This document shows positions 771-6,110 of a stretch of 6,110 nucleotides of DNA, piece after piece. Position 1 is the first letter of the stretch. Each line of letters starts with the position of its first letter. Source of the DNA: a virus; the IMG/VR virus record IMGVR_UViG_3300045988_003432, positions 1-6,110 of that record; one strand, 5' to 3'. The notes beneath the pieces are model-generated. The model was given only the letters and a program-made list of their open reading frames with translations. It was not told the DNA's origin and made no database searches. A program made the translations under genes and the position numbers.

Positions 771-1211
771 ATGAGAAATTTTGCTTATAAAAATCCCGAT
801 TACATCAAAAATGAGATTGTTCCTCAATTGGTTGAGGATAATCCGTGTTATCAACAGTCTTCATATGATTCAGTTATGTACGATGAGTCTCCAGACGGTG
901 ATTTGATTCAAGCTGATATGACCCAGATTCTGCTGAATCAAGAAAAATATCGTCGTTTGCTTGGCGATATGAATGTTCAGAACATCCTTGCTCAAATGCA
1001 TCCTACTCAATCCACTGTTATGGATGGTATGACTGATGAAGAACGTTTTAATTGCGTTATTTCTCGTCATTGTCAGACTATGTCGGAACGTCAAGCTGTT
1101 CTTCAACAACTGGCTAGCGAGAAGTCAGAATTATCGGCTTATGCTGAATCTTTATTGGCAGAGAATAAGGCAGCGCCGTCTTCGGATTCCGCATCTGCCT
1201 CTGAAGGATAA
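771..1211 (+). CDS. Hypothetical 146-aa acidic protein, possibly a scaffolding-type protein (speculative).
   Basis: ATG at 771, 11 nt after the VP1 stop. The TAA stop (1209-1211) shares its last A with the VP2 ATG (TAATG). It shows the NNT codon bias of neighbouring genes. By my count about 23 D/E versus 11 K/R. No motif I can recognise. Confidence 0.6.
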   Translation: MRNFAYKNPDYIKNEIVPQLVEDNPCYQQSSYDSVMYDESPDGDLIQADMTQILLNQEKYRRLLGDMNVQNILAQMHPTQSTVMDGMTDEERFNCVISRHCQTMSERQAVLQQLASEKSELSAYAESLLAENKAAPSSDSASASEG

Positions 1212-2305
1212 TGGGCTTATTTGATGCTATTGCTTCTTCAGCTGCAAACCTTACCGACAATGTTGTCGGTATGGTTAATCAGAATCATCAGAATAAGGTT
1301 AACCTTCGTATGATGCGTGAACAAAACGCATTTAACGCTGAACAGGCTCAAATTCAACGTGATTGGCAGCAACAAATGTGGGGAATGAACAATTCTTATA
1401 ATTCTCCTGATGCTATGATTTCTCGTGGTTTGAATCCATTTGTTCAAGGTTCAGCTGCTATGGCTGGTTCTAAATCTCCCGCTTCGGGAGGAGCTGCTGC
1501 TACTGCCGCTCCTGTTCCTAGTATGCAAGCTTATAAACCTAATTTTTCTGGTGTATTCCAATCTCTTGCTTCTCTTGCTGAAGCTAAGGCCTCTGAGGCC
1601 GCAGCTGGCGAATCGGGTTCTCGTGCACGTCAGACTGATACGGTGACTCCTCTTTTGTCTGATTATTATAGAGGTCTTACTAATTGGAAAAATTTGGCTA
1701 TTGGTTCTTCTGGTTACTGGAATAAGGAAACAGGTCGTATATCTGCTGCTCTGGATCAGTCTACTGAAGCTCAAAATTTGAAGAATGCTCAGTTTGCTGA
1801 ACGTATATCGGCTGCCCAGGAAACTCAAATCTTACTTAATTCTGAAGCACAACGTGCTATGAATAGATATATGGACCAGAGTCAACAAGCTGATTTATTT
1901 ATTAAGGCACAAACTTTGGTTAATCTTCAGAATCAAGGTGCTCTTACGGAAAAACAGATTCAGACTGAAATTCAGCGCGCTATTCTTGTTTCTGCCGAGG
2001 CTTCTGGCAAGAAAATTGATAATCGTACTGCTTCTGAAACGGCTAATTCTTTAATTAAGGCTGCTAATGCTTCCAATGAATTGCAGTATCGTGATAGTAC
2101 GTATGATTACAAGAATACCAAATTGCGTAAACATACGGAATATAAAACTTCTATGGCAAATCAGAAAGCTGCTGAATATGGAGCGGAATTGGCTCGTAAA
2201 CAAGGCCGTACTCATTATTGGGACTCTGTTTCTCGTGGTCTTGGTTCTGTTGCTTCTGGTTCTGGTAATGTTATTGGCTCATTTCGTATTGGTAATCGTA
2301 AGTAA
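1211..2305 (+). CDS. VP2: Minor capsid / DNA pilot protein VP2 (H-like), 364 aa.
   Basis: The N-terminal block NAFNAEQAQIQRDWQQQMWGMNNSYNSPDAMISRGLNPF resembles the conserved FNA.EAQK.RD.Q..M......Y......M...GLNP signature of Microviridae VP2 proteins. It is followed by an Ala/Ser/Gly-rich linker and a Q/A/E-rich segment likely to form a coiled coil (about nt 1750-1990), as expected for a tube-forming pilot protein. It sits directly after the capsid gene block. Confidence 0.8.
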   Translation: MGLFDAIASSAANLTDNVVGMVNQNHQNKVNLRMMREQNAFNAEQAQIQRDWQQQMWGMNNSYNSPDAMISRGLNPFVQGSAAMAGSKSPASGGAAATAAPVPSMQAYKPNFSGVFQSLASLAEAKASEAAAGESGSRARQTDTVTPLLSDYYRGLTNWKNLAIGSSGYWNKETGRISAALDQSTEAQNLKNAQFAERISAAQETQILLNSEAQRAMNRYMDQSQQADLFIKAQTLVNLQNQGALTEKQIQTEIQRAILVSAEASGKKIDNRTASETANSLIKAANASNELQYRDSTYDYKNTKLRKHTEYKTSMANQKAAEYGAELARKQGRTHYWDSVSRGLGSVASGSGNVIGSFRIGNRK

Positions 2306-2309
2306 TTGT

Positions 2310-2337
2310 ACATTTATTAACATTTGTAAACACATTT
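2310..2337 (+). repeat. Three phased ACATTT direct repeats (2310-2315, 2320-2325, 2332-2337) just after the VP2 stop.
   Basis: Read directly: tgtACATTTattaACATTTgtaaacACATTTata, with 10- and 12-nt spacing, about one helical turn. The sequence is certain but function is unknown. The confidence value refers to a functional iteron role. Confidence 0.3.
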
Positions 2338-2387
2338 ATACTTATTCTCTTTACCCCCGGCTGAAATAGCACACTTCAGGACTAGAA

Positions 2388-2434
2388 GCCCATCGCGGCG
2401 TTTGAGCGATATACACCCGCCGCCCGCGTAGGGC
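2388..2434 (+). other. Stem-loop A (GC-rich).
   Basis: gccc-at-cgcgg (2388-2398) pairs with ccgcg-ta-gggc (2424-2434): 9 bp with a 2-nt internal mismatch. A mutually exclusive alternative pairs gcggcg (2395-2400) with cgccgc (2418-2423). Confidence 0.5.
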
Positions 2435-2446
2435 CTGGTCGAAAAA

Positions 2447-2492
2447 CGGAGCGGAGCGACTTCCTTATAGGAGCGTTCCGCTCCGGTATTTT
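2447..2492 (+). terminator. Candidate intrinsic (rho-independent) terminator for the VP4-VP1-VP2 transcription unit (stem-loop B).
   Basis: 2447-2458 pairs with 2474-2485 (12 bp, one G-U). A2459 is bulged, then 2460-2463 pairs with 2470-2473 around the 6-nt loop cttata. The stem is followed by g-tatttt (2486-2492) and preceded by gaaaaa (2441-2446), so the element looks bidirectional. It lies 142 nt downstream of the VP2 stop. The U-tract is short (4 T). Confidence 0.45.
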
Positions 2493-2493
2493 A

Positions 2494-2535
2494 GCACGGA
2501 GTGCGCAAAGGCAGGTTCTATCTGACCTGCCGTGC
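2494..2535 (+). other. Stem-loop C with a 12-nt asymmetric bulge.
   Basis: ggcaggt (2510-2516) pairs with acctgcc (2525-2531) around the loop tctatctg. gcac (2494-2497) pairs with gtgc (2532-2535), leaving ggagtgcgcaaa (2498-2509) unpaired. An alternative register pairs gcacgg with ccgtgc. Confidence 0.5.
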
Positions 2536-2536
2536 C

Positions 2537-2552
2537 TATACACCCCTGTATA
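2537..2552 (+). other. Small AT-rich hairpin TATACA-CCCC-TGTATA.
   Basis: tataca (2537-2542) is the exact reverse complement of tgtata (2547-2552), with loop cccc. Its 5' arm is part of the second TATACACCC direct-repeat copy. Confidence 0.4.
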
Positions 2553-2555
2553 CAT

Positions 2556-2570
2556 CCACTTGTTAATTAA
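2556..2570 (+). promoter_or_regulatory. Candidate plus-strand origin nick motif CCACTTG/TTAATTAA (speculative).
   Basis: CCACTTG followed by an AT-only palindrome TTAATTAA. As I recall it, the phiX174 origin core is CAACTTG^ATATTAATAAC, nicked after the G by the HUH protein A. The heptamer differs at one base and AT-rich DNA follows in both. The element sits next to a hairpin in the only large non-coding region. Confidence 0.2.
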
Positions 2571-2597
2571 GCGAAGCCCCTAGTTGCGTACGAAGTA

Positions 2598-2620
2598 AAT
2601 TCGAGTTATCCTCTCGAATT
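2598..2620 (+). other. Stem-loop D (perfect 8-bp stem).
   Basis: aattcgag (2598-2605) pairs with ctcgaatt (2613-2620) around the 7-nt loop ttatcct. No T-run follows. It is enclosed by a possible 7-bp long-range pairing, agttgcg (2582-2588) with cgcaact (2643-2649). Confidence 0.45.
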
Positions 2621-2686
2621 CTCCATCTCTTGTCTATAAACGCGCAACTCACACTCTACGGTATAATCTAAAAAAAACAGTTTTCT

Positions 2687-2717
2687 TTTGGTTTGATGAA
2701 AATAATCTGTATATTTG
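2687..2717 (+). promoter_or_regulatory. Candidate Bacteroides-type promoter (-33 TTTG / -7 TAnnTTTG).
   Basis: TTTG at 2687-2690, then a 19-nt spacer, then TATATTTG at 2710-2717. This fits the TTTG ... TAnnTTTG architecture described for Bacteroides sigma-AB promoters. It lies about 50 nt upstream of the first ATG-initiated ORF after the gap (2768). It was the only exact TAnnTTTG I noticed in the intergenic regions. Confidence 0.45.
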
Positions 2718-2767
2718 CTCCCAGTTAGAAGTTACAATCGTTATTAACACTTAAAATTGTTACAATT

Positions 2768-2962
2768 ATGCAGAAATTTATTATTTCAGTTAAGGAAAAA
2801 ACTACGGGTCGCGATGCTATTTCGCCTTATATCGTTAATTCTCTCGATGGCCTTGGAAATTATTCTGAACGAGTTTCTCCGTTGGGCCTTATTGTTATTG
2901 TGGATTCAATTAAAGAAGAGAACTATTTCGTTGAACTTAAAACTCAAAGTGATGAAAAGTAA
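2768..2962 (+). CDS. Hypothetical protein, 64 aa.
   Basis: ATG at 2768, first gene after the candidate promoter. NNT-biased codons like the other genes, roughly neutral charge, and no recognisable motif. The stop TAA is at 2960-2962. Confidence 0.5.
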   Translation: MQKFIISVKEKTTGRDAISPYIVNSLDGLGNYSERVSPLGLIVIVDSIKEENYFVELKTQSDEK

Positions 2963-3035
2963 TAGTATTTGGAAGATTGTAATTGGAGCTGTTTCCGCTG
3001 CACTAGGCTATATTTTAAACGCTATTGGTCTATGA
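2952..3035 (+). CDS. Possible 27-aa single-pass membrane peptide (MKSNSIWKIVIGAVSAALGYILNAIGL), a holin-like candidate.
   Basis: ATG at 2952, overlapping the last codons of the 64-aa ORF. The stop TGA at 3033-3035 overlaps the ATG (3032) of the peptidase gene as ATGA, which suggests translational coupling. 14 of 27 codens end in T, matching the genome bias. It has a short K-containing N-terminus followed by about 19 hydrophobic or small residues. It is too short for statistical support. Confidence 0.3.
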   Translation: MKSNSIWKIVIGAVSAALGYILNAIGL

Positions 3036-3340
3036 ATAGTGCTCTTATGGATTTTTTTGAACACCTGCTGTGTTTCAACTTGCATTTTTCGGTAACAAGT
3101 GCTAAGCGTTCTATTGCTGAAAATAAAGCTGCTGGAGGTGTTCCTAATTCACAACATTTGGTTGGAGAAGCTGTTGATATTAAACCCTATGGTTCTACTA
3201 CTTATAACCGGTTGCTTGAACATATTCATAACTATTCAGATAGCGCTCATGTGTTTGATCAACTGATATTGTATCCTACGTTTATTCATATTTCGTTTGG
3301 TGATCGTAACCGTCGCCAAGTCATTGATACCCGTAAATAA
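3032..3340 (+). CDS. Peptidase M15-family zinc D-Ala-D-Ala carboxypeptidase-like cell-wall hydrolase (endolysin candidate), 102 aa from the first ATG.
   Basis: The sequence contains FSVTSAKRSIAENKAAGGVPNSQHLVGEAVDI, with an exact SxHxxGxAxD motif (S40-D49). H42 is at nt 3155-3157 and D49 at 3176-3178, giving H-x6-D. Downstream are EHIH (ExxH-like, 3218-3229) and FIHISF (His at 3287-3289) as candidate third ligands. The ORF-track start at 2969 is a TTG that adds a Cys/Trp-rich 21 aa. ATG 3032 is the first ATG. The protein is shorter at the N-terminus than typical M15 phage endolysins. Confidence 0.85.
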   Translation: MNSALMDFFEHLLCFNLHFSVTSAKRSIAENKAAGGVPNSQHLVGEAVDIKPYGSTTYNRLLEHIHNYSDSAHVFDQLILYPTFIHISFGDRNRRQVIDTRK

Positions 3341-3342
3341 TT

Positions 3343-5022
3343 ATGAAATTTTCTCCCGATTTGCTTAAGGCTGTTGATCATTGTCAGCATCGTTCTTTTA
3401 TTACAAATAGGTATAATGGTGCACGCATTGCGGTAGATTGTGGTCAATGCGATTATTGTATCCATAAGAAAGCCCAGAAAGCGTCCATGCGCGTGAAGAC
3501 CGCTGGAAGTGCTTTTAAGTATTCTTATTTTGTTACACTTACTTATGATAATGAGCATGTTCCCCTTATGTCTTGTAAGGTTTTGTATAGTGATTATGAT
3601 GATGCTATAGGCATTTCGGGAGATATTCATTTTGGTCATGAATATCATAAGTATATCCCTGTTTCTGAATATCAATGTGATGATAACTCCATATTGCGTC
3701 ATATATTCTTTGAGCAAGTACAAGGCACAGTGCCGTTTGACCGTGAGATTAAGGAATATGTTCCTGTTAAGGATAATTGGTTTCTTAGTATGGATGCTAT
3801 TCGTAGTTTTATCCATAAGACGCAATCGGTTGACAAAACGGATTATCCCGCTTCTGGACAATATGGCCGTGATAACCTTATTCCCTTTTTAAATTATGCT
3901 GATGTTCAGAATTATATTAAAAGATTACGTAAATATTTGTATAAACAATTAGGTTCTTATGAAACATTACATTTCTACGCTGTCGGTGAGTACGGCCCTG
4001 TTCACTTCCGTCCGCATTATCATATCTTATTATTCACAAACTCGGAAGAAGTCTCAAAGGTATTACGATACTGTCACGATAAGAGTTGGAAATTCGGTCG
4101 TTCAGATTTCCAGATTGCCCGCGGTGGAGCTTCTTCATACGTTTCGAGTTACGTTAACAGCCTTAGTGCTGCTCCCTTATTATATCGCTCATGCCGCGCG
4201 TTTAGACCCCGCTCGAGAGCTTCTATCGGATTCTTTGAGAAAGGTTGCGATTTCGTGGAAGGTGAAGAGCCTTATGCGCAGATTGAACAAAAAATCGATT
4301 CTGTCGTTAATGGAAGAGTCTATGCCTTCAGCGGCCTTAGTATTCGGTCAACTCCCCCCATGTCGTATATCCGTACCTTATTGCCCCGATTCTCGTCTGC
4401 TCGCAATGACGATGGTATTGCGATTGCTCGAGTTCTTCGCGCTGTACACTCAACGCCAAAAAGAATTGCAAAATACGGATTCATTGACTATAAACAGGAT
4501 TCAGTTTTGAGTCTTGTTCGTACTTATTATCAATATCTTAAGGCTAACCCTATTCTTACTGACGATGACAAGATTATATTACATTCTGCTAGGTGTCTTA
4601 CTAGGTTCTGTAACAGTTCTAGTGATGTCGATATTGAGTCTTATATTAATAAACTATATCGGCTATTCTTATATGTCTCTAAATTCTTCCGTAATTGGCA
4701 TTTGCCTGCCTTTGGCTGTAATATTGATTCTTACACCGGTCGTATTATGTTTATTCTTAAAAAAGGTATAGAATATGAGAAGAAAAAGAATTATGAAAGC
4801 TTACGAGATGCATATAACCTTCGTTCCCAGTACCCGGAAATATCAGATTGTATGTTTGCGCTGCCTCAGAACGGGCAAGAGATTGATGTCTTGCAGGCCG
4901 TATCAAGTGAAACGATTCACCTCCTTGAACAACTCCGGTGCCGTAGTGCAACATTCTGTCGTGATATGATTAAGCACAAGAAGCTTAATGATGCTAATAA
5001 TATTTTCAACCGTATGGTTTAA
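3343..5022 (+). CDS. VP4: Replication initiation protein VP4 (HUH rolling-circle endonuclease, phiX174 A-like), 559 aa.
   Basis: N-terminal Cys/His cluster HCQH...CGQCDYCIH. Motif 1 is FVTLTY (nt 3529-3546). Motif 2 is HUH: RPHYHILLF, with HYH at 4015-4023. Motif 3 has two tyrosines three residues apart, SYVSSYVNS (Y266 at 4138-4140, Y270 at 4150-4152), as in phiX174 YVAKYVNK. The ATG is 2 nt after the peptidase stop. Confidence 0.93.
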   Translation: MKFSPDLLKAVDHCQHRSFITNRYNGARIAVDCGQCDYCIHKKAQKASMRVKTAGSAFKYSYFVTLTYDNEHVPLMSCKVLYSDYDDAIGISGDIHFGHEYHKYIPVSEYQCDDNSILRHIFFEQVQGTVPFDREIKEYVPVKDNWFLSMDAIRSFIHKTQSVDKTDYPASGQYGRDNLIPFLNYADVQNYIKRLRKYLYKQLGSYETLHFYAVGEYGPVHFRPHYHILLFTNSEEVSKVLRYCHDKSWKFGRSDFQIARGGASSYVSSYVNSLSAAPLLYRSCRAFRPRSRASIGFFEKGCDFVEGEEPYAQIEQKIDSVVNGRVYAFSGLSIRSTPPMSYIRTLLPRFSSARNDDGIAIARVLRAVHSTPKRIAKYGFIDYKQDSVLSLVRTYYQYLKANPILTDDDKIILHSARCLTRFCNSSSDVDIESYINKLYRLFLYVSKFFRNWHLPAFGCNIDSYTGRIMFILKKGIEYEKKKNYESLRDAYNLRSQYPEISDCMFALPQNGQEIDVLQAVSSETIHLLEQLRCRSATFCRDMIKHKKLNDANNIFNRMV

Positions 5023-5039
5023 TTTAATTTTTATAAACT

Positions 5040-6110
5040 ATGAGTGATTTTAATCCTTTGGACCGTGCGAAAATTCCTACCCATCGGTCCTCTTTCGACT
5101 TGAGTTCGAAAAAGTTGTTTACAGCTAAAGTTGGTGAAATTCTTCCTTGCTATTGGCAGATTGCTATTCCTGGTAACAAGTATCGTATTTCCTCTGACTG
5201 GTTTACCCGTACTGTTCCGGTTAACACTGCTGCTTATACTCGTATTAAGGAGTATTATGATTTCTACGCTGTGCCGTTACGTTTGATTTCTCGTGCTCTT
5301 CCACAGGCATTTACTCAGATGACGGACTATATGACTAGTGCGGCTAGCTCTACTACGAATACATCTGCACTTACTTCTGTTCCTAGTGTTACTCAGAGCA
5401 CTTTTAGTGCGTTTTTTCAGACGGCTAATGCTGGTGACCAGCCTAATGTCCGTGACGATGCAGGTCTTCCTATTGTCTATGGTTCTTGTAAATTGCTTGA
5501 CATGCTTGGTTATGGTTCTATGATTGCTTCTACTAATACAGCCAAGGCTGCTATTACTAAAAAATATCTAGGTGTTGACAATCTTGGTGACGCTTCTAAC
5601 CCTTTGGTTTATCAGACTTCGCAGACTGTCAATGCTCTTCCGTTCCTTGCTTATCAGAAGATTTATTATGATTTTTTCAGCAACAACCAATGGGAAAAGC
5701 ACAAAGCTTACGCTTATAATGTAGACTATTGGTCCGGATCTGGTAATATTGGATTGGTTACGGATATGGTCCAGCTGCGTTATGCAAATTATCCGAAGGA
5801 TTATTTTATGGGCATGCTTCCTTCTTCCCAGTATGGTCCTGTAGCTGCTCTTCCTTCTACTGTTTCTTCTATTTCTTCCAATTCTGTAATTCTTCCTACT
5901 AACTCAACCTCTCTTCGTGCCGCTGGCTCTGATACTGCTAATGTTAATTTATCTTCTTCTAATACTTTAGGAGGCGATATTCTTACTATTAACTCTAACT
6001 TATCCGCCCTCTCTATTCGTGCAACCGAATACCTTCAGCGCTGGAAAGAAGTAGTCCAATTCAGTAGCAAGGATTATTCAGACCAGATGGCTGCCCAGTT
6101 TGGTATTAAA
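5040..6110 (+). CDS. VP1: Major capsid protein VP1, 5' portion. It is open to the window end, and the unique part ends at 6011 and continues at base 1.
   Basis: ATG at 5040 is preceded by an in-frame TAA (5034-5036), and I found no stop in a hand translation through 6110. The translation contains HRSSFDLSSKKLFTAKVGEILPCYWQIAIPGNKY, IKEYYDFYAVPLRLI, LPFLAYQKIYYDFF and YPKDYFMGMLPSSQYG. These match the conserved Microviridae capsid blocks (S.FDLS...T...G.L.P...LPGD; FFVP.R; LP..AY..IY.DY; KDYFT..LP..Q.G). It is absent from the supplied ORF track only because it lacks an in-window stop. Confidence 0.93.
   Translation, partial: MSDFNPLDRAKIPTHRSSFDLSSKKLFTAKVGEILPCYWQIAIPGNKYRISSDWFTRTVPVNTAAYTRIKEYYDFYAVPLRLISRALPQAFTQMTDYMTSAASSTTNTSALTSVPSVTQSTFSAFFQTANAGDQPNVRDDAGLPIVYGSCKLLDMLGYGSMIASTNTAKAAITKKYLGVDNLGDASNPLVYQTSQTVNALPFLAYQKIYYDFFSNNQWEKHKAYAYNVDYWSGSGNIGLVTDMVQLRYANYPKDYFMGMLPSSQYGPVAALPSTVSSISSNSVILPTNSTSLRAAGSDTANVNLSSSNTLGGDILTINSNLSALSIRATEYLQRWKEVVQFSSKDYSDQMAAQFGIK
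6012..6110. repeat. Terminal redundancy, copy 2 (identical to 1-99).
   Basis: See 1-99. The unit length implied is 6011 nt. Confidence 0.97.

Follow-up and report, generated by a model that had tools for sequence, protein, structure and literature searches.

Why does a microvirus genome of 6 kb keep a gap of several hundred nucleotides without a gene? This question was raised by positions 2306-2767 of the window, i.e., of the whole 6,110-nt stretch of IMG/VR virus record IMGVR_UViG_3300045988_003432 that was analysed. The window was found to be a circular 6011-nt microvirus genome with a 99-nt terminal overlap, and all its genes are on the + strand. As an earlier sequence-only reading of this DNA had noticed, 462 nt separate the stop codon of the VP2 gene from the next ATG-initiated gene, whereas the remaining intergenic gaps measure 2-17 nt. 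That reading listed four options for the gap without choosing among them: a replication origin complex, a structured non-coding RNA, an attachment or recombination site and recently captured host DNA. Inside the gap, a two-module element of ~290 nt (~2374-2656) was found, which is a real, strongly constrained and previously undescribed cis element; no published description of it was found in literature searches. The best reading of the gap is that of a cis-acting replication and regulatory hub of the phage. Of the four options, the evidence favours the replication origin, namely the GNA mini-hairpins, the position between hairpins resembling terminators and the only promoter and the restriction to single-stranded DNA (ssDNA) phages. 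With moderate confidence, the element can be regarded as a replication-origin region that acts as folded + strand ssDNA, most likely as the site where the host starts the complementary strand.

Conservation and fold of the element

More than 250 independent microvirus contigs of ~6 kb were found to carry the element in one and the same position; they comprise 34 GenBank records, ~130 IMG/VR contigs and at least 119 metagenome contigs, mostly from the human gut. The IMG/VR and metagenome copies were retrieved via two invariant motifs. The 34 annotated phage records came from dog, lemur and human samples, and their match to the window begins at ~2374. Across relatives, the element was 72-86% identical, while the same genomes were 70-77% identical overall and their VP2 mostly 48-53%; the exceptions were close genomes from dog faeces (one listed, with 91% identity in VP2). 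All 80 relatives with VP1 at least 65% identical to that of the window carried the whole element or a part of it wherever the contig covered the region. It is therefore strongly supported that the element is constrained above the level of the neighbouring genes. In a scan of metagenomes, it was confined to genomes of ~6 kb or their concatemers, since the longer contigs were head-to-tail concatemers with repeat periods of 5988-6315 nt. A 7268-nt contig (L195, CYGL01001066.1) had copies of the element on both strands, which indicates an inverted or chimeric microvirus assembly.

The deviating composition of this DNA could point to an artefact, that is, to an assembly chimera, captured host DNA or a decayed or unannotated coding gene. 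The G+C content is 56-66% compared with 40% for the genome. The earlier counts made by hand (46/70 for 2391-2460, 42/80 for 2461-2540 and 23/70 for 2761-2830) were exact, and CpG shows no depletion in the gap (observed-to-expected ratio 1.36 versus 0.76 in 1-2305 and 1.08 in 2768-6006). In addition, some GenBank records have a coding sequence (CDS) annotated at this place (109 aa in Dulem virus 242), and the window has an open reading frame (ORF) of 57 aa on the - strand (2382-2555). However, chimeric assembly is excluded because the element has the same location in more than 250 independent assemblies. A scan of representative genomes from 185,579 species of bacteria and archaea gave no occurrence of either of the two exact motifs; this argues against recently captured host DNA, as does the vertical inheritance of the element within the clade, and no prophage copy was seen.

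Nor does the element behave as a protein-coding gene. A frame stayed open in 2 of 67 relatives in each of two + strand frames and in none of the 67 on the - strand, and 600 of 737 indel runs were not multiples of three (137 were). There was no third-position periodicity and no Pfam match, including for the 57-aa ORF. It was correct that the gap has no ORF of 60 aa or more, but shorter ones exist, such as that of 57 aa, and none of them is conserved. The explanation by an artefact, improbable in the extreme, is thus already refuted. The absence of ATG from the + strand, which had been stressed earlier, is real: the run from 2269 to 2695 is the longest in the genome (428 nt), ~5.6 ATG were expected, and only 0.3% of mononucleotide shuffles had none. 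As a functional signal, it was not conserved in relatives. The core was without ATG in only 12 of the 67 relatives, and 40 of the 67 had an ATG at one shared column. Because most relatives carry ATG there, its depletion is incidental to the window genome.

Hypothetical CDSs annotated over the element in Dulem virus 242 (XCD03858.1, 109 aa, L006 358-684), Dulem virus 257 (XCD06240.1, L182 3581-3784) and Bacteroides fragilis phage phiHBP1 (XTK89949.1, L305 2326-2736) are probably spurious.

To the conservation above that of the neighbouring genes, covariation and a strand-specific fold were added, and these bear out the earlier view that so long a gap would have a function. All-against-all column covariation was too noisy for direct use because clade-specific substitutions correlate; explicit helices were tested instead. 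They were read from an alignment of 67 representatives, mutually <93% identical, and tested as a structure of 72 pairs. In this structure, 95.0% of the cells formed a standard pair (28-47% when the partners were slid by 1-3 columns), 26 pairs were changed on both sides (5-12 with slid partners), and the covariation score was 0.150 (0.020-0.056 with slid partners). None of these values was reached by any of 500 shuffles. The fold of the 5' module (46 pairs) was reproduced on 97 distinct metagenome sequences, which were aligned to the model and were independent of the derivation of the fold: 94.8% of the cells were paired versus 31-48% with slid partners.

The strand of the fold could be determined as well. 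G.T pairs (258) were far more frequent than A.C mismatches (72); therefore, the folded strand is the + strand. G.U pairs make up 5.5% of the cells, and one U.G pair is invariant. Compared with shuffled sequences, the core of the + strand folded with z = -5.9 under RNA and DNA parameters alike, while the - strand gave -3.1 with RNA parameters and -3.3 with DNA parameters. A long-range pairing of GGAGCGGAGC with GCGAAGCCCC that was proposed by RNAalifold was rejected, as was its GCCC/GGGC stem enclosing the first candidate pseudoknot (PK-A), because these pairs either never vary or are broken by changes in L136 and L004 (L numbers designate individual relatives).

Modules, mini-hairpins and promoter

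The GC-rich island that had been singled out is real, but the element runs past it into a less GC-rich 3' module. The helices and other features of both modules are listed in Table 1. The histories of the two modules were found to differ. L125, L130 and L135 have an intact 3' module, A-run and promoter, but a plain GC hairpin with a T-run takes the place of the 5' module; L131 has an intact 3' module too, with unrelated upstream sequence instead of the 5' module, and H3 is the only 5' part retained in L123. VP1 of the relatives without the 5' module (L125, L130, L131 and L135) is 68-85% identical to that of the window. Since the 5' module is missing in L131/L172 (VP1 85% identical to the window) yet present in L133 (VP1 65%), it behaves like a cassette.

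Covariance models of the modules extended this picture. Model R2, made for the 5' module, matched 101 metagenome copies and found nothing outside the clade, neither in outgroups nor in phiHBP1. Model R1, made for the 3' module, matched Dulem virus 257 (54.8 bits, E 4e-10), phiHBP1 (38.3 bits, E 2e-6) and Microvirus mar62 (28.8 bits, E 2e-4), and weaker matches were found at the expected place in three further outgroups. Every R1 match lay on the coding strand, within the corresponding gap that precedes the early or Rep genes. The genomes concerned have ~30% VP2 identity to the window, and in phiHBP1, VP1 is ~38% and Rep 28% identical. These matches in distant microviruses indicate that the 3' module is ancient and that the GC-rich island is a clade-specific addition. 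Among the 14-mers shared with outgroup gaps, only the A-run and the promoter stood out, and no other sequence conservation was found beyond the clade. The use of phiHBP1 as a close model was rejected, since it is distant (VP1 ~38%) and has no 5' module.

Within the 5' module, the mean column identity was 87% (40 representatives). Both stems of PK-A were kept and covaried in two data sets (pair 2386/2401: AU 47, GC 10; pair 2395/2407: GC 53, AU 7, CG 5). In the second candidate pseudoknot (PK-B), all cells were paired, and there were five compensatory cases, at 2418/2428 in three sequences and at 2423/2433 and 2425/2431 in one each. These changes break the rival pairing of GCCC (2388-2391) with GGGC (2431-2434). 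PK-B is less strongly supported than PK-A because its compensatory cases come from one data set; its stems are invariant in the metagenome set, which therefore provides no further test.

The long hairpin H3 was the sole terminator-like site flagged by a scanner in 2200-2850, and its pair 2454/2478 covaries (GC 55, AU 6). Weak alignments to it were obtained for the plain terminators of L125 and L135, and the tail of H3 is conserved more than a T-run requires. Its 5' arm contains the motif GCGGAGC (2451-2457) as an alternative fold. The sequence GGAGCGGAGCGAC of this arm (2448-2460) recurs in an outgroup gap (L185, bajarodmic virus 429; 3817-3833), where model R2 finds no homology of the module as a whole.

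Downstream of the 5' module, H6 is optional and is deleted in several relatives, e.g., Dulem viruses 237 and 254. Between H6 and the 3' module (equivalents of 2559/2561), an extra hairpin of ~35 nt (CCTAGATCTATTAGTAATGGATCTAGG and variants) was seen in L002 (MG945572), L093, L119, L082 and L044; this spot tolerates insertions. In the 3' module, H7, H7b and H8 covary strongly (2601/2617: UA 40, CG 26; closing pair of H7b: GC 35, CG 20, AU 6).

Three of the conserved hairpins are capped by C(GNA)G; the same is true of H4 in the window, its loop varying freely in relatives. Within the 462-nt gap, the heptamer xCGNAGx' is present four times; the other 5549 nt contain it twice, and the - strand lacks it altogether. 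The Markov expectation is 0.33 (P ~6e-4), and the enrichment in the gap exceeds 10-fold. In five outgroup genomes, 13 occurrences were counted in 2297 nt of gap versus 13 in 29767 nt elsewhere (13-fold; p = 6e-11); 3 were on the - strand. The middle base of the loop is the only one that varies in two of the three mini-hairpins. The first mini-hairpin site reads GCGGAGC or GCGAAGC across the clade. In the subgroup typified by L012, the H3 stem is lost and a second mini-hairpin, GCG[A/T/C]AGC, stands in its place, so that the motifs are retained. H7b is mostly GCGAAGC, CCGAAGG, ACGAAGT, CCGGAGG or GCGAAAGC, i.e., most of its variants likewise differ in the middle loop base or by a change from GCGAAGC to GCGAAAGC. 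The variants GCGAAGC and GCGAAAGC are the two canonical stable DNA mini-hairpins.

These loops have a precedent in replication. Among GCNNNGC sequences, only those with GNA loops give an extraordinarily stable DNA mini-hairpin, with a melting temperature of 70-76 °C, and GNA mini-hairpins bind single-stranded DNA-binding protein (SSB) poorly (PMC13037366). GCGNAGC and GCGNNAGC motifs lie at the primase start site of the complementary-strand origins of phages G4, St-1 and alpha3, and the same motifs occur in ssiA of RSF1010 and in the single-stranded promoters of phage N4 (PMC13037366). The G4 mini-hairpin is an alternative fold within a longer hairpin (PMC13037366), and GCGGAGC stands in the same relation to H3.

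Directly downstream, the element adjoins a Bacteroidota-type promoter. The only complete TTTG-N19-TAnnTTTG on either strand of the genome is at 2687-2717; we take this form to be the Bacteroides promoter consensus. The exact motif was present in 6 of 13 aligned clade sequences (window included), and most of the others had a near variant (TTCCTTTG) in the same column. TAnnTTTG boxes were found in the outgroup regions and in phiHBP1 too. The clade keeps the run of A between the element and the promoter as A6-A11, and so do phiHBP1 and three of the five outgroups (Dulem virus 263, Dulem virus 245 and bajarodmic virus 429). This layout with a single promoter points to one transcription unit running round the circle and to a Bacteroidota host; the host phylum is likewise suggested by the distant kinship to phiHBP1. 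In the phiHBP1 record (L305), the only TAnnTTTG box (coding-strand 4032-4046) ends 4 nt before the annotated start codon of Rep; probably, either this start or the assignment of the promoter is wrong.

Replication origin, RNA or another cis signal

Direct observations are the conservation of the element, its strand-specific fold, its modularity and distribution, the enrichment of motifs and its location with respect to the promoter. The order in the genome is terminator-like hairpin or hairpins, structured DNA and promoter of the Rep operon. In the intergenic region of M13, a terminator with the packaging hairpin, the minus origin and the plus origin follow each other in the same order. We assumed that virions contain the + strand, by analogy with characterised Microviridae. 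After entry, host SSB would coat the viral DNA, and the stable GC-rich stems, the two compact pseudoknots and the SSB-resistant C(GNA)G mini-hairpins would remain folded and exposed. A host priming enzyme (DnaG primase, the primosome or RNA polymerase) could then recognise the fold and lay the primer for the complementary strand. The result would be an origin of the kind of G4 oric, M13 ori(-) or plasmid single-strand origins (sso). The 3' module may be the ancient core common to Bacteroidota-type microviruses, and the 5' module an accessory priming cassette built around the terminator-like H3, which would add or improve a priming site. We infer the action as DNA, the priming of the complementary strand and the identity of the reading enzyme from the features listed above. 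Every microvirus is expected to need a start site for the complementary strand, and only in the phiX/G4 group has one been mapped (PMC9865509).

Several points weigh against this proposal. The z-scores are equal under RNA and DNA parameters, and because the mRNA of Microviridae is of the same sense as the packaged strand, covariation, wobble pairs and strand asymmetry fit an RNA equally well. GNA triloops are not out of the question in RNA, and compact pseudoknots with long invariant unpaired stretches are more typical of functional RNAs. The element is not known to have sequence similarity to a characterised origin, the G4/St-1/alpha3 oric included. Taken as a whole, the gap of phiHBP1 shows no better folding than shuffled sequences do. 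In favour of the proposal, a terminator-like hairpin between VP2 and the structured DNA was recognised by eye in L130, L135, mar62 and phiHBP1, and in L125, the hairpin between VP2 and the retained 3' module was confirmed as terminator-like by the scanner; against it, those of phiHBP1 and mar62 were not flagged, because the loop and tail rules of the scanner exclude them. Finally, the window, MG945488, MG945572 and OP549867 have no terminator before the 5' module, so at least PK-A, PK-B and H3 are probably transcribed as the 3' end of the long mRNA.

It is accordingly possible, though rather less probable, that the element acts as RNA, either as a structured 3'-terminal domain of the genome-length transcript or as a small RNA processed from it. 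PK-A, PK-B and H3 would then stabilise the mRNA, control termination, give rise to a regulatory RNA derived from the 3' untranslated region (3'-UTR) or serve as a ribonucleoprotein scaffold. The fold on the mRNA-sense strand with its G.U pairs and invariant U.G pair, the two compact H-type pseudoknots, the many invariant unpaired bases and the z-score of -5.9 with RNA parameters are in line with such a role. So is the position of the element after the VP2 stop codon, without an intervening terminator, in the window and the three relatives just named. In these three, the variable spacer that follows VP2 in the window is absent, and the element begins <10 nt after the stop codon. Moreover, H3 with its T-run sits where L125 and L135 have plain terminators, and PK-A, PK-B and H3 thus resemble a typical 3'-UTR RNA ending in a terminator.

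Other findings disagree with an RNA. The element is without a promoter of its own and, given where it starts in the three relatives, could be transcribed only as the 3' end of a genome-length mRNA. H4, H5 and the entire 3' module lie beyond H3 and before the only promoter, yet they covary equally. In L125 and, by eye, in the other four genomes mentioned above, a terminator-like hairpin precedes the structured region. No helix of the fold is capped by a GNRA or UUCG/UNCG tetraloop, and the loops found are those of DNA-favoured GNA or GNNA mini-hairpins. The L012-type subgroup drops the H3 stem and keeps the motifs, and the element was found only in ssDNA phage genomes. An Rfam scan of 2200-2900 gave no family even at E up to 10, only chance microRNA-like matches, the best being mir-383 with 19.5 bits versus a gathering score of 70. 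Neither a tRNA nor a tmRNA was detected with ARAGORN. It also appears unlikely that the element, or at least its 5' module with the tandem pseudoknots, belongs to a new class of large structured RNAs, made from the 3' end of the single transcript and having a biochemical role of its own (e.g., host mimicry, ribonucleoprotein formation or catalysis).

A DNA-level role other than priming was considered too, namely a plus-strand origin bound and nicked by Rep (VP4), a packaging signal or a folded attachment site of the XerCD type. The 3' module adjoins the promoter of the Rep operon and is conserved as widely as Rep. In its internal loop, it presents an unpaired conserved CTYGTCYATAAACG strand, as HUH nick sites often are, and this sequence loosely resembles what we take to be the nick core of phiX174 and pC194, CTTG/ATA. 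The resemblance is short, and outside the clade sequence conservation is limited to the A-run and the promoter. An essential plus origin is also hard to reconcile with the 5' module, which close relatives can do without.

For an attachment site, as one of the four initial options had it, the scattered dif-like strings GGTGCGCA, TGTATA and TGTTAAT could be cited. They are non-contiguous, and a contiguous two-arm site of ~28 nt was not found; no integrated copies were present in the 185,579 genomes, and the only longer contigs in metagenomes were concatemers. Because no lysogeny was seen in phiHBP1 (PMC13064476), this version is weakened further. The XerCD dif-like site was therefore rejected, and these other DNA roles as a group are considered doubtful. 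Within the preferred reading as an origin for the complementary strand, the CTYGTCYATAAACG strand beside the Rep-operon promoter may still be a candidate nick site of VP4; cutting by VP4 within CTCTTGTCTATAAACG, if true, would assign the plus origin to the 3' module.

Known systems and the surrounding genome

The element is best filed with the single-strand origins of phiX/G4-type phages, filamentous phages and rolling-circle plasmids, among which it is unusually large, modular and pseudoknotted. Like the oric of G4, St-1, alpha3 and phiK and the n' hairpin of phiX174, it is non-coding and intergenic and is carried by the packaged strand of a microvirus. The G4-type origins have several stable hairpins specific to the viral strand, as the element does. 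Thus, location in a non-coding gap, strand-specific hairpins and a mini-hairpin motif were all found in it. Complementary-strand origins of the G4 type are ~55-140 nt long, and the element, with ~290 nt, is about twice as large; unlike them, it is built of two modules and contains two candidate pseudoknots. Its place is between VP2 and the early genes, while the G4-type origins lie between the capsid and spike genes, and its host is probably from Bacteroidota, unlike those of the enterobacterial G4-type phages. In G4-type origins, there are GCGNAGC or GCGNNAGC motifs, one of them inside a longer hairpin, as in the element (PMC13037366). These origins are needed at the first step of infection (PMC9865509), and the element would serve likewise.

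A second group consists of ssoA, ssoU, ssoT and ssoW and the minus origin of M13/f1. These are, like the element, non-coding, highly folded, orientation-specific and 150-300 nt long, and they are conserved beyond the flanking genes. As in the M13 intergenic region, such origins adjoin a terminator and the Rep promoter, and so does the element. The sso of rolling-circle plasmids are cassettes that are present or absent among close relatives, which is also true of the 5' module (163 nt, always on the + strand). They differ from the element in that their replicons are plasmids and its replicon is viral. Origins of the sso/M13 type are read by RNA polymerase, but no promoter-like hairpin was identified in the element. 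Of the ssoA consensus motifs CS-6 and RSB, CS-6 (TAGCGT) was not conserved at 2492-2497, where the window has TAGCAC and relatives have TAGCAC or TAGCGC, and RSB was not recognisable.

Among microviruses, the reekeekee- and roodoodoo-microviruses are predicted to have small intergenic DNA hairpins of 13-64 nt with an uncertain role (PMC9865509). With the element, these share nucleotide conservation, compensatory substitutions and a proposed start of the negative strand (PMC9865509). They are single hairpins in unrelated clades, whereas the element is multi-helix, pseudoknotted and two-module at ~290 nt, and its 3' module spans deeply divergent Bacteroidota-type microviruses. ROOL, GOLLD and small RNAs derived from 3'-UTRs are comparable in size, pseudoknots, invariant unpaired nucleotides and carriage by phages; the element also resembles 3'-UTR RNAs in its position at the 3' end of a transcript and its terminator-like hairpin. 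Unlike the ROOL/GOLLD type, it has no Rfam match and no GNRA or UNCG loops, half of it lies beyond the terminator-like hairpin, and it occurs in ssDNA phages only.

Microviruses rank with the most abundant phages in the human gut. To our knowledge, neither the site of conversion from ssDNA to duplex nor the Rep nick has been established outside the phiX174/G4 group, and the element is a concrete, precisely bounded candidate for that site supported by covariation. Its 3' module also occurs in phiHBP1, the first microvirus of Bacteroides brought into culture, so the question is directly testable. If the proposal is true, the link between GNA mini-hairpins and single-strand initiation extends from enterobacterial phages to Bacteroidota. 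Models R1 and R2 can be used to annotate the region in thousands of metagenomic microvirus genomes and to remove spurious hypothetical-protein calls over the element. For the construction of synthetic or engineered gut microviruses, the element marks out a minimal cis-acting region.

The genes of the window were assigned from the ORF list, a Pfam search and the annotation of relatives, and they are given in Table 1 together with the features of the gap.

Table 1. Genes of the window and features of the gap between VP2 and the 64-aa ORF (window coordinates)
Feature	Position	Strand	Remarks
VP1 capsid gene	5040 across the junction to 759	+	from ORF/domain analysis and annotation of relatives
146-aa ORF	771-1211	+	
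VP2 pilot gene	1211-2305	+	
Variable spacer after VP2 stop	2306-2373	+	unconserved; does not align among relatives
5' GC-rich module	2374-2536	+	PK-A, PK-B, H3, H4, H5; clade-specific, nearly invariant
PK-A, candidate H-type pseudoknot	2385-2410	+	stem a 2385-2390/2397-2402; stem b 2392-2396/2406-2410
PK-B, candidate compact pseudoknot	2418-2434	+	stem d 2418-2420/2426-2428; stem c 2422-2425/2431-2434
H3, long GC-rich hairpin	2448-2484, then GGTATTTTAG to 2493	+	terminator-like
H4	2494-2504	+	loop GGA in window; pair 2496/2502: AU 52, GC 15
H5	2505-2506/2534-2535 and 2510-2516/2525-2531	+	pair 2514/2527: GC 31, GU 22, AU 11
H6, optional hairpin	2537-2552	+	TATACA/TGTATA
3' module	2561-2656	+	mini-hairpin GCGAAGC, H7, H7b, H8, unpaired strand, CACAC
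Mini-hairpin GCGAAGC	2571-2577	+	
H7 closing stem	2582-2589/2642-2649	+	
H7b, mini-hairpin ACGAAGT	2590-2596	+	
H8	2598-2605/2613-2620	+	invariant loop TTATCCT
Unpaired pyrimidine-rich strand	2621-2641	+	includes CTCTTGTCTATAAAC
CACAC	2650-2654	+	
A-run (A8)	2670-2677	+	between element and promoter
Bacteroidota-type promoter	2687-2717	+	TTTG 2687-2690, 19-nt spacer, TATATTTG 2710-2717
64-aa ORF	2768-2962	+	hypothetical
M15 peptidase gene	2969-3340	+	
VP4 replication initiator (Rep) gene	3343-5022	+	

Positions 1-99 of the window are identical to 6012-6110; this terminal redundancy shows that the genome was read past its junction. The 64-aa ORF lies directly 3' of the promoter, and it keeps this position in most relatives and has no Pfam match. 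In Dulem viruses 254 and 255 (L005 and L008; 158-400), there are ~160 extra nt between the VP2 stop codon and the element; an ORF of 50 aa is annotated within them, which the window does not have.

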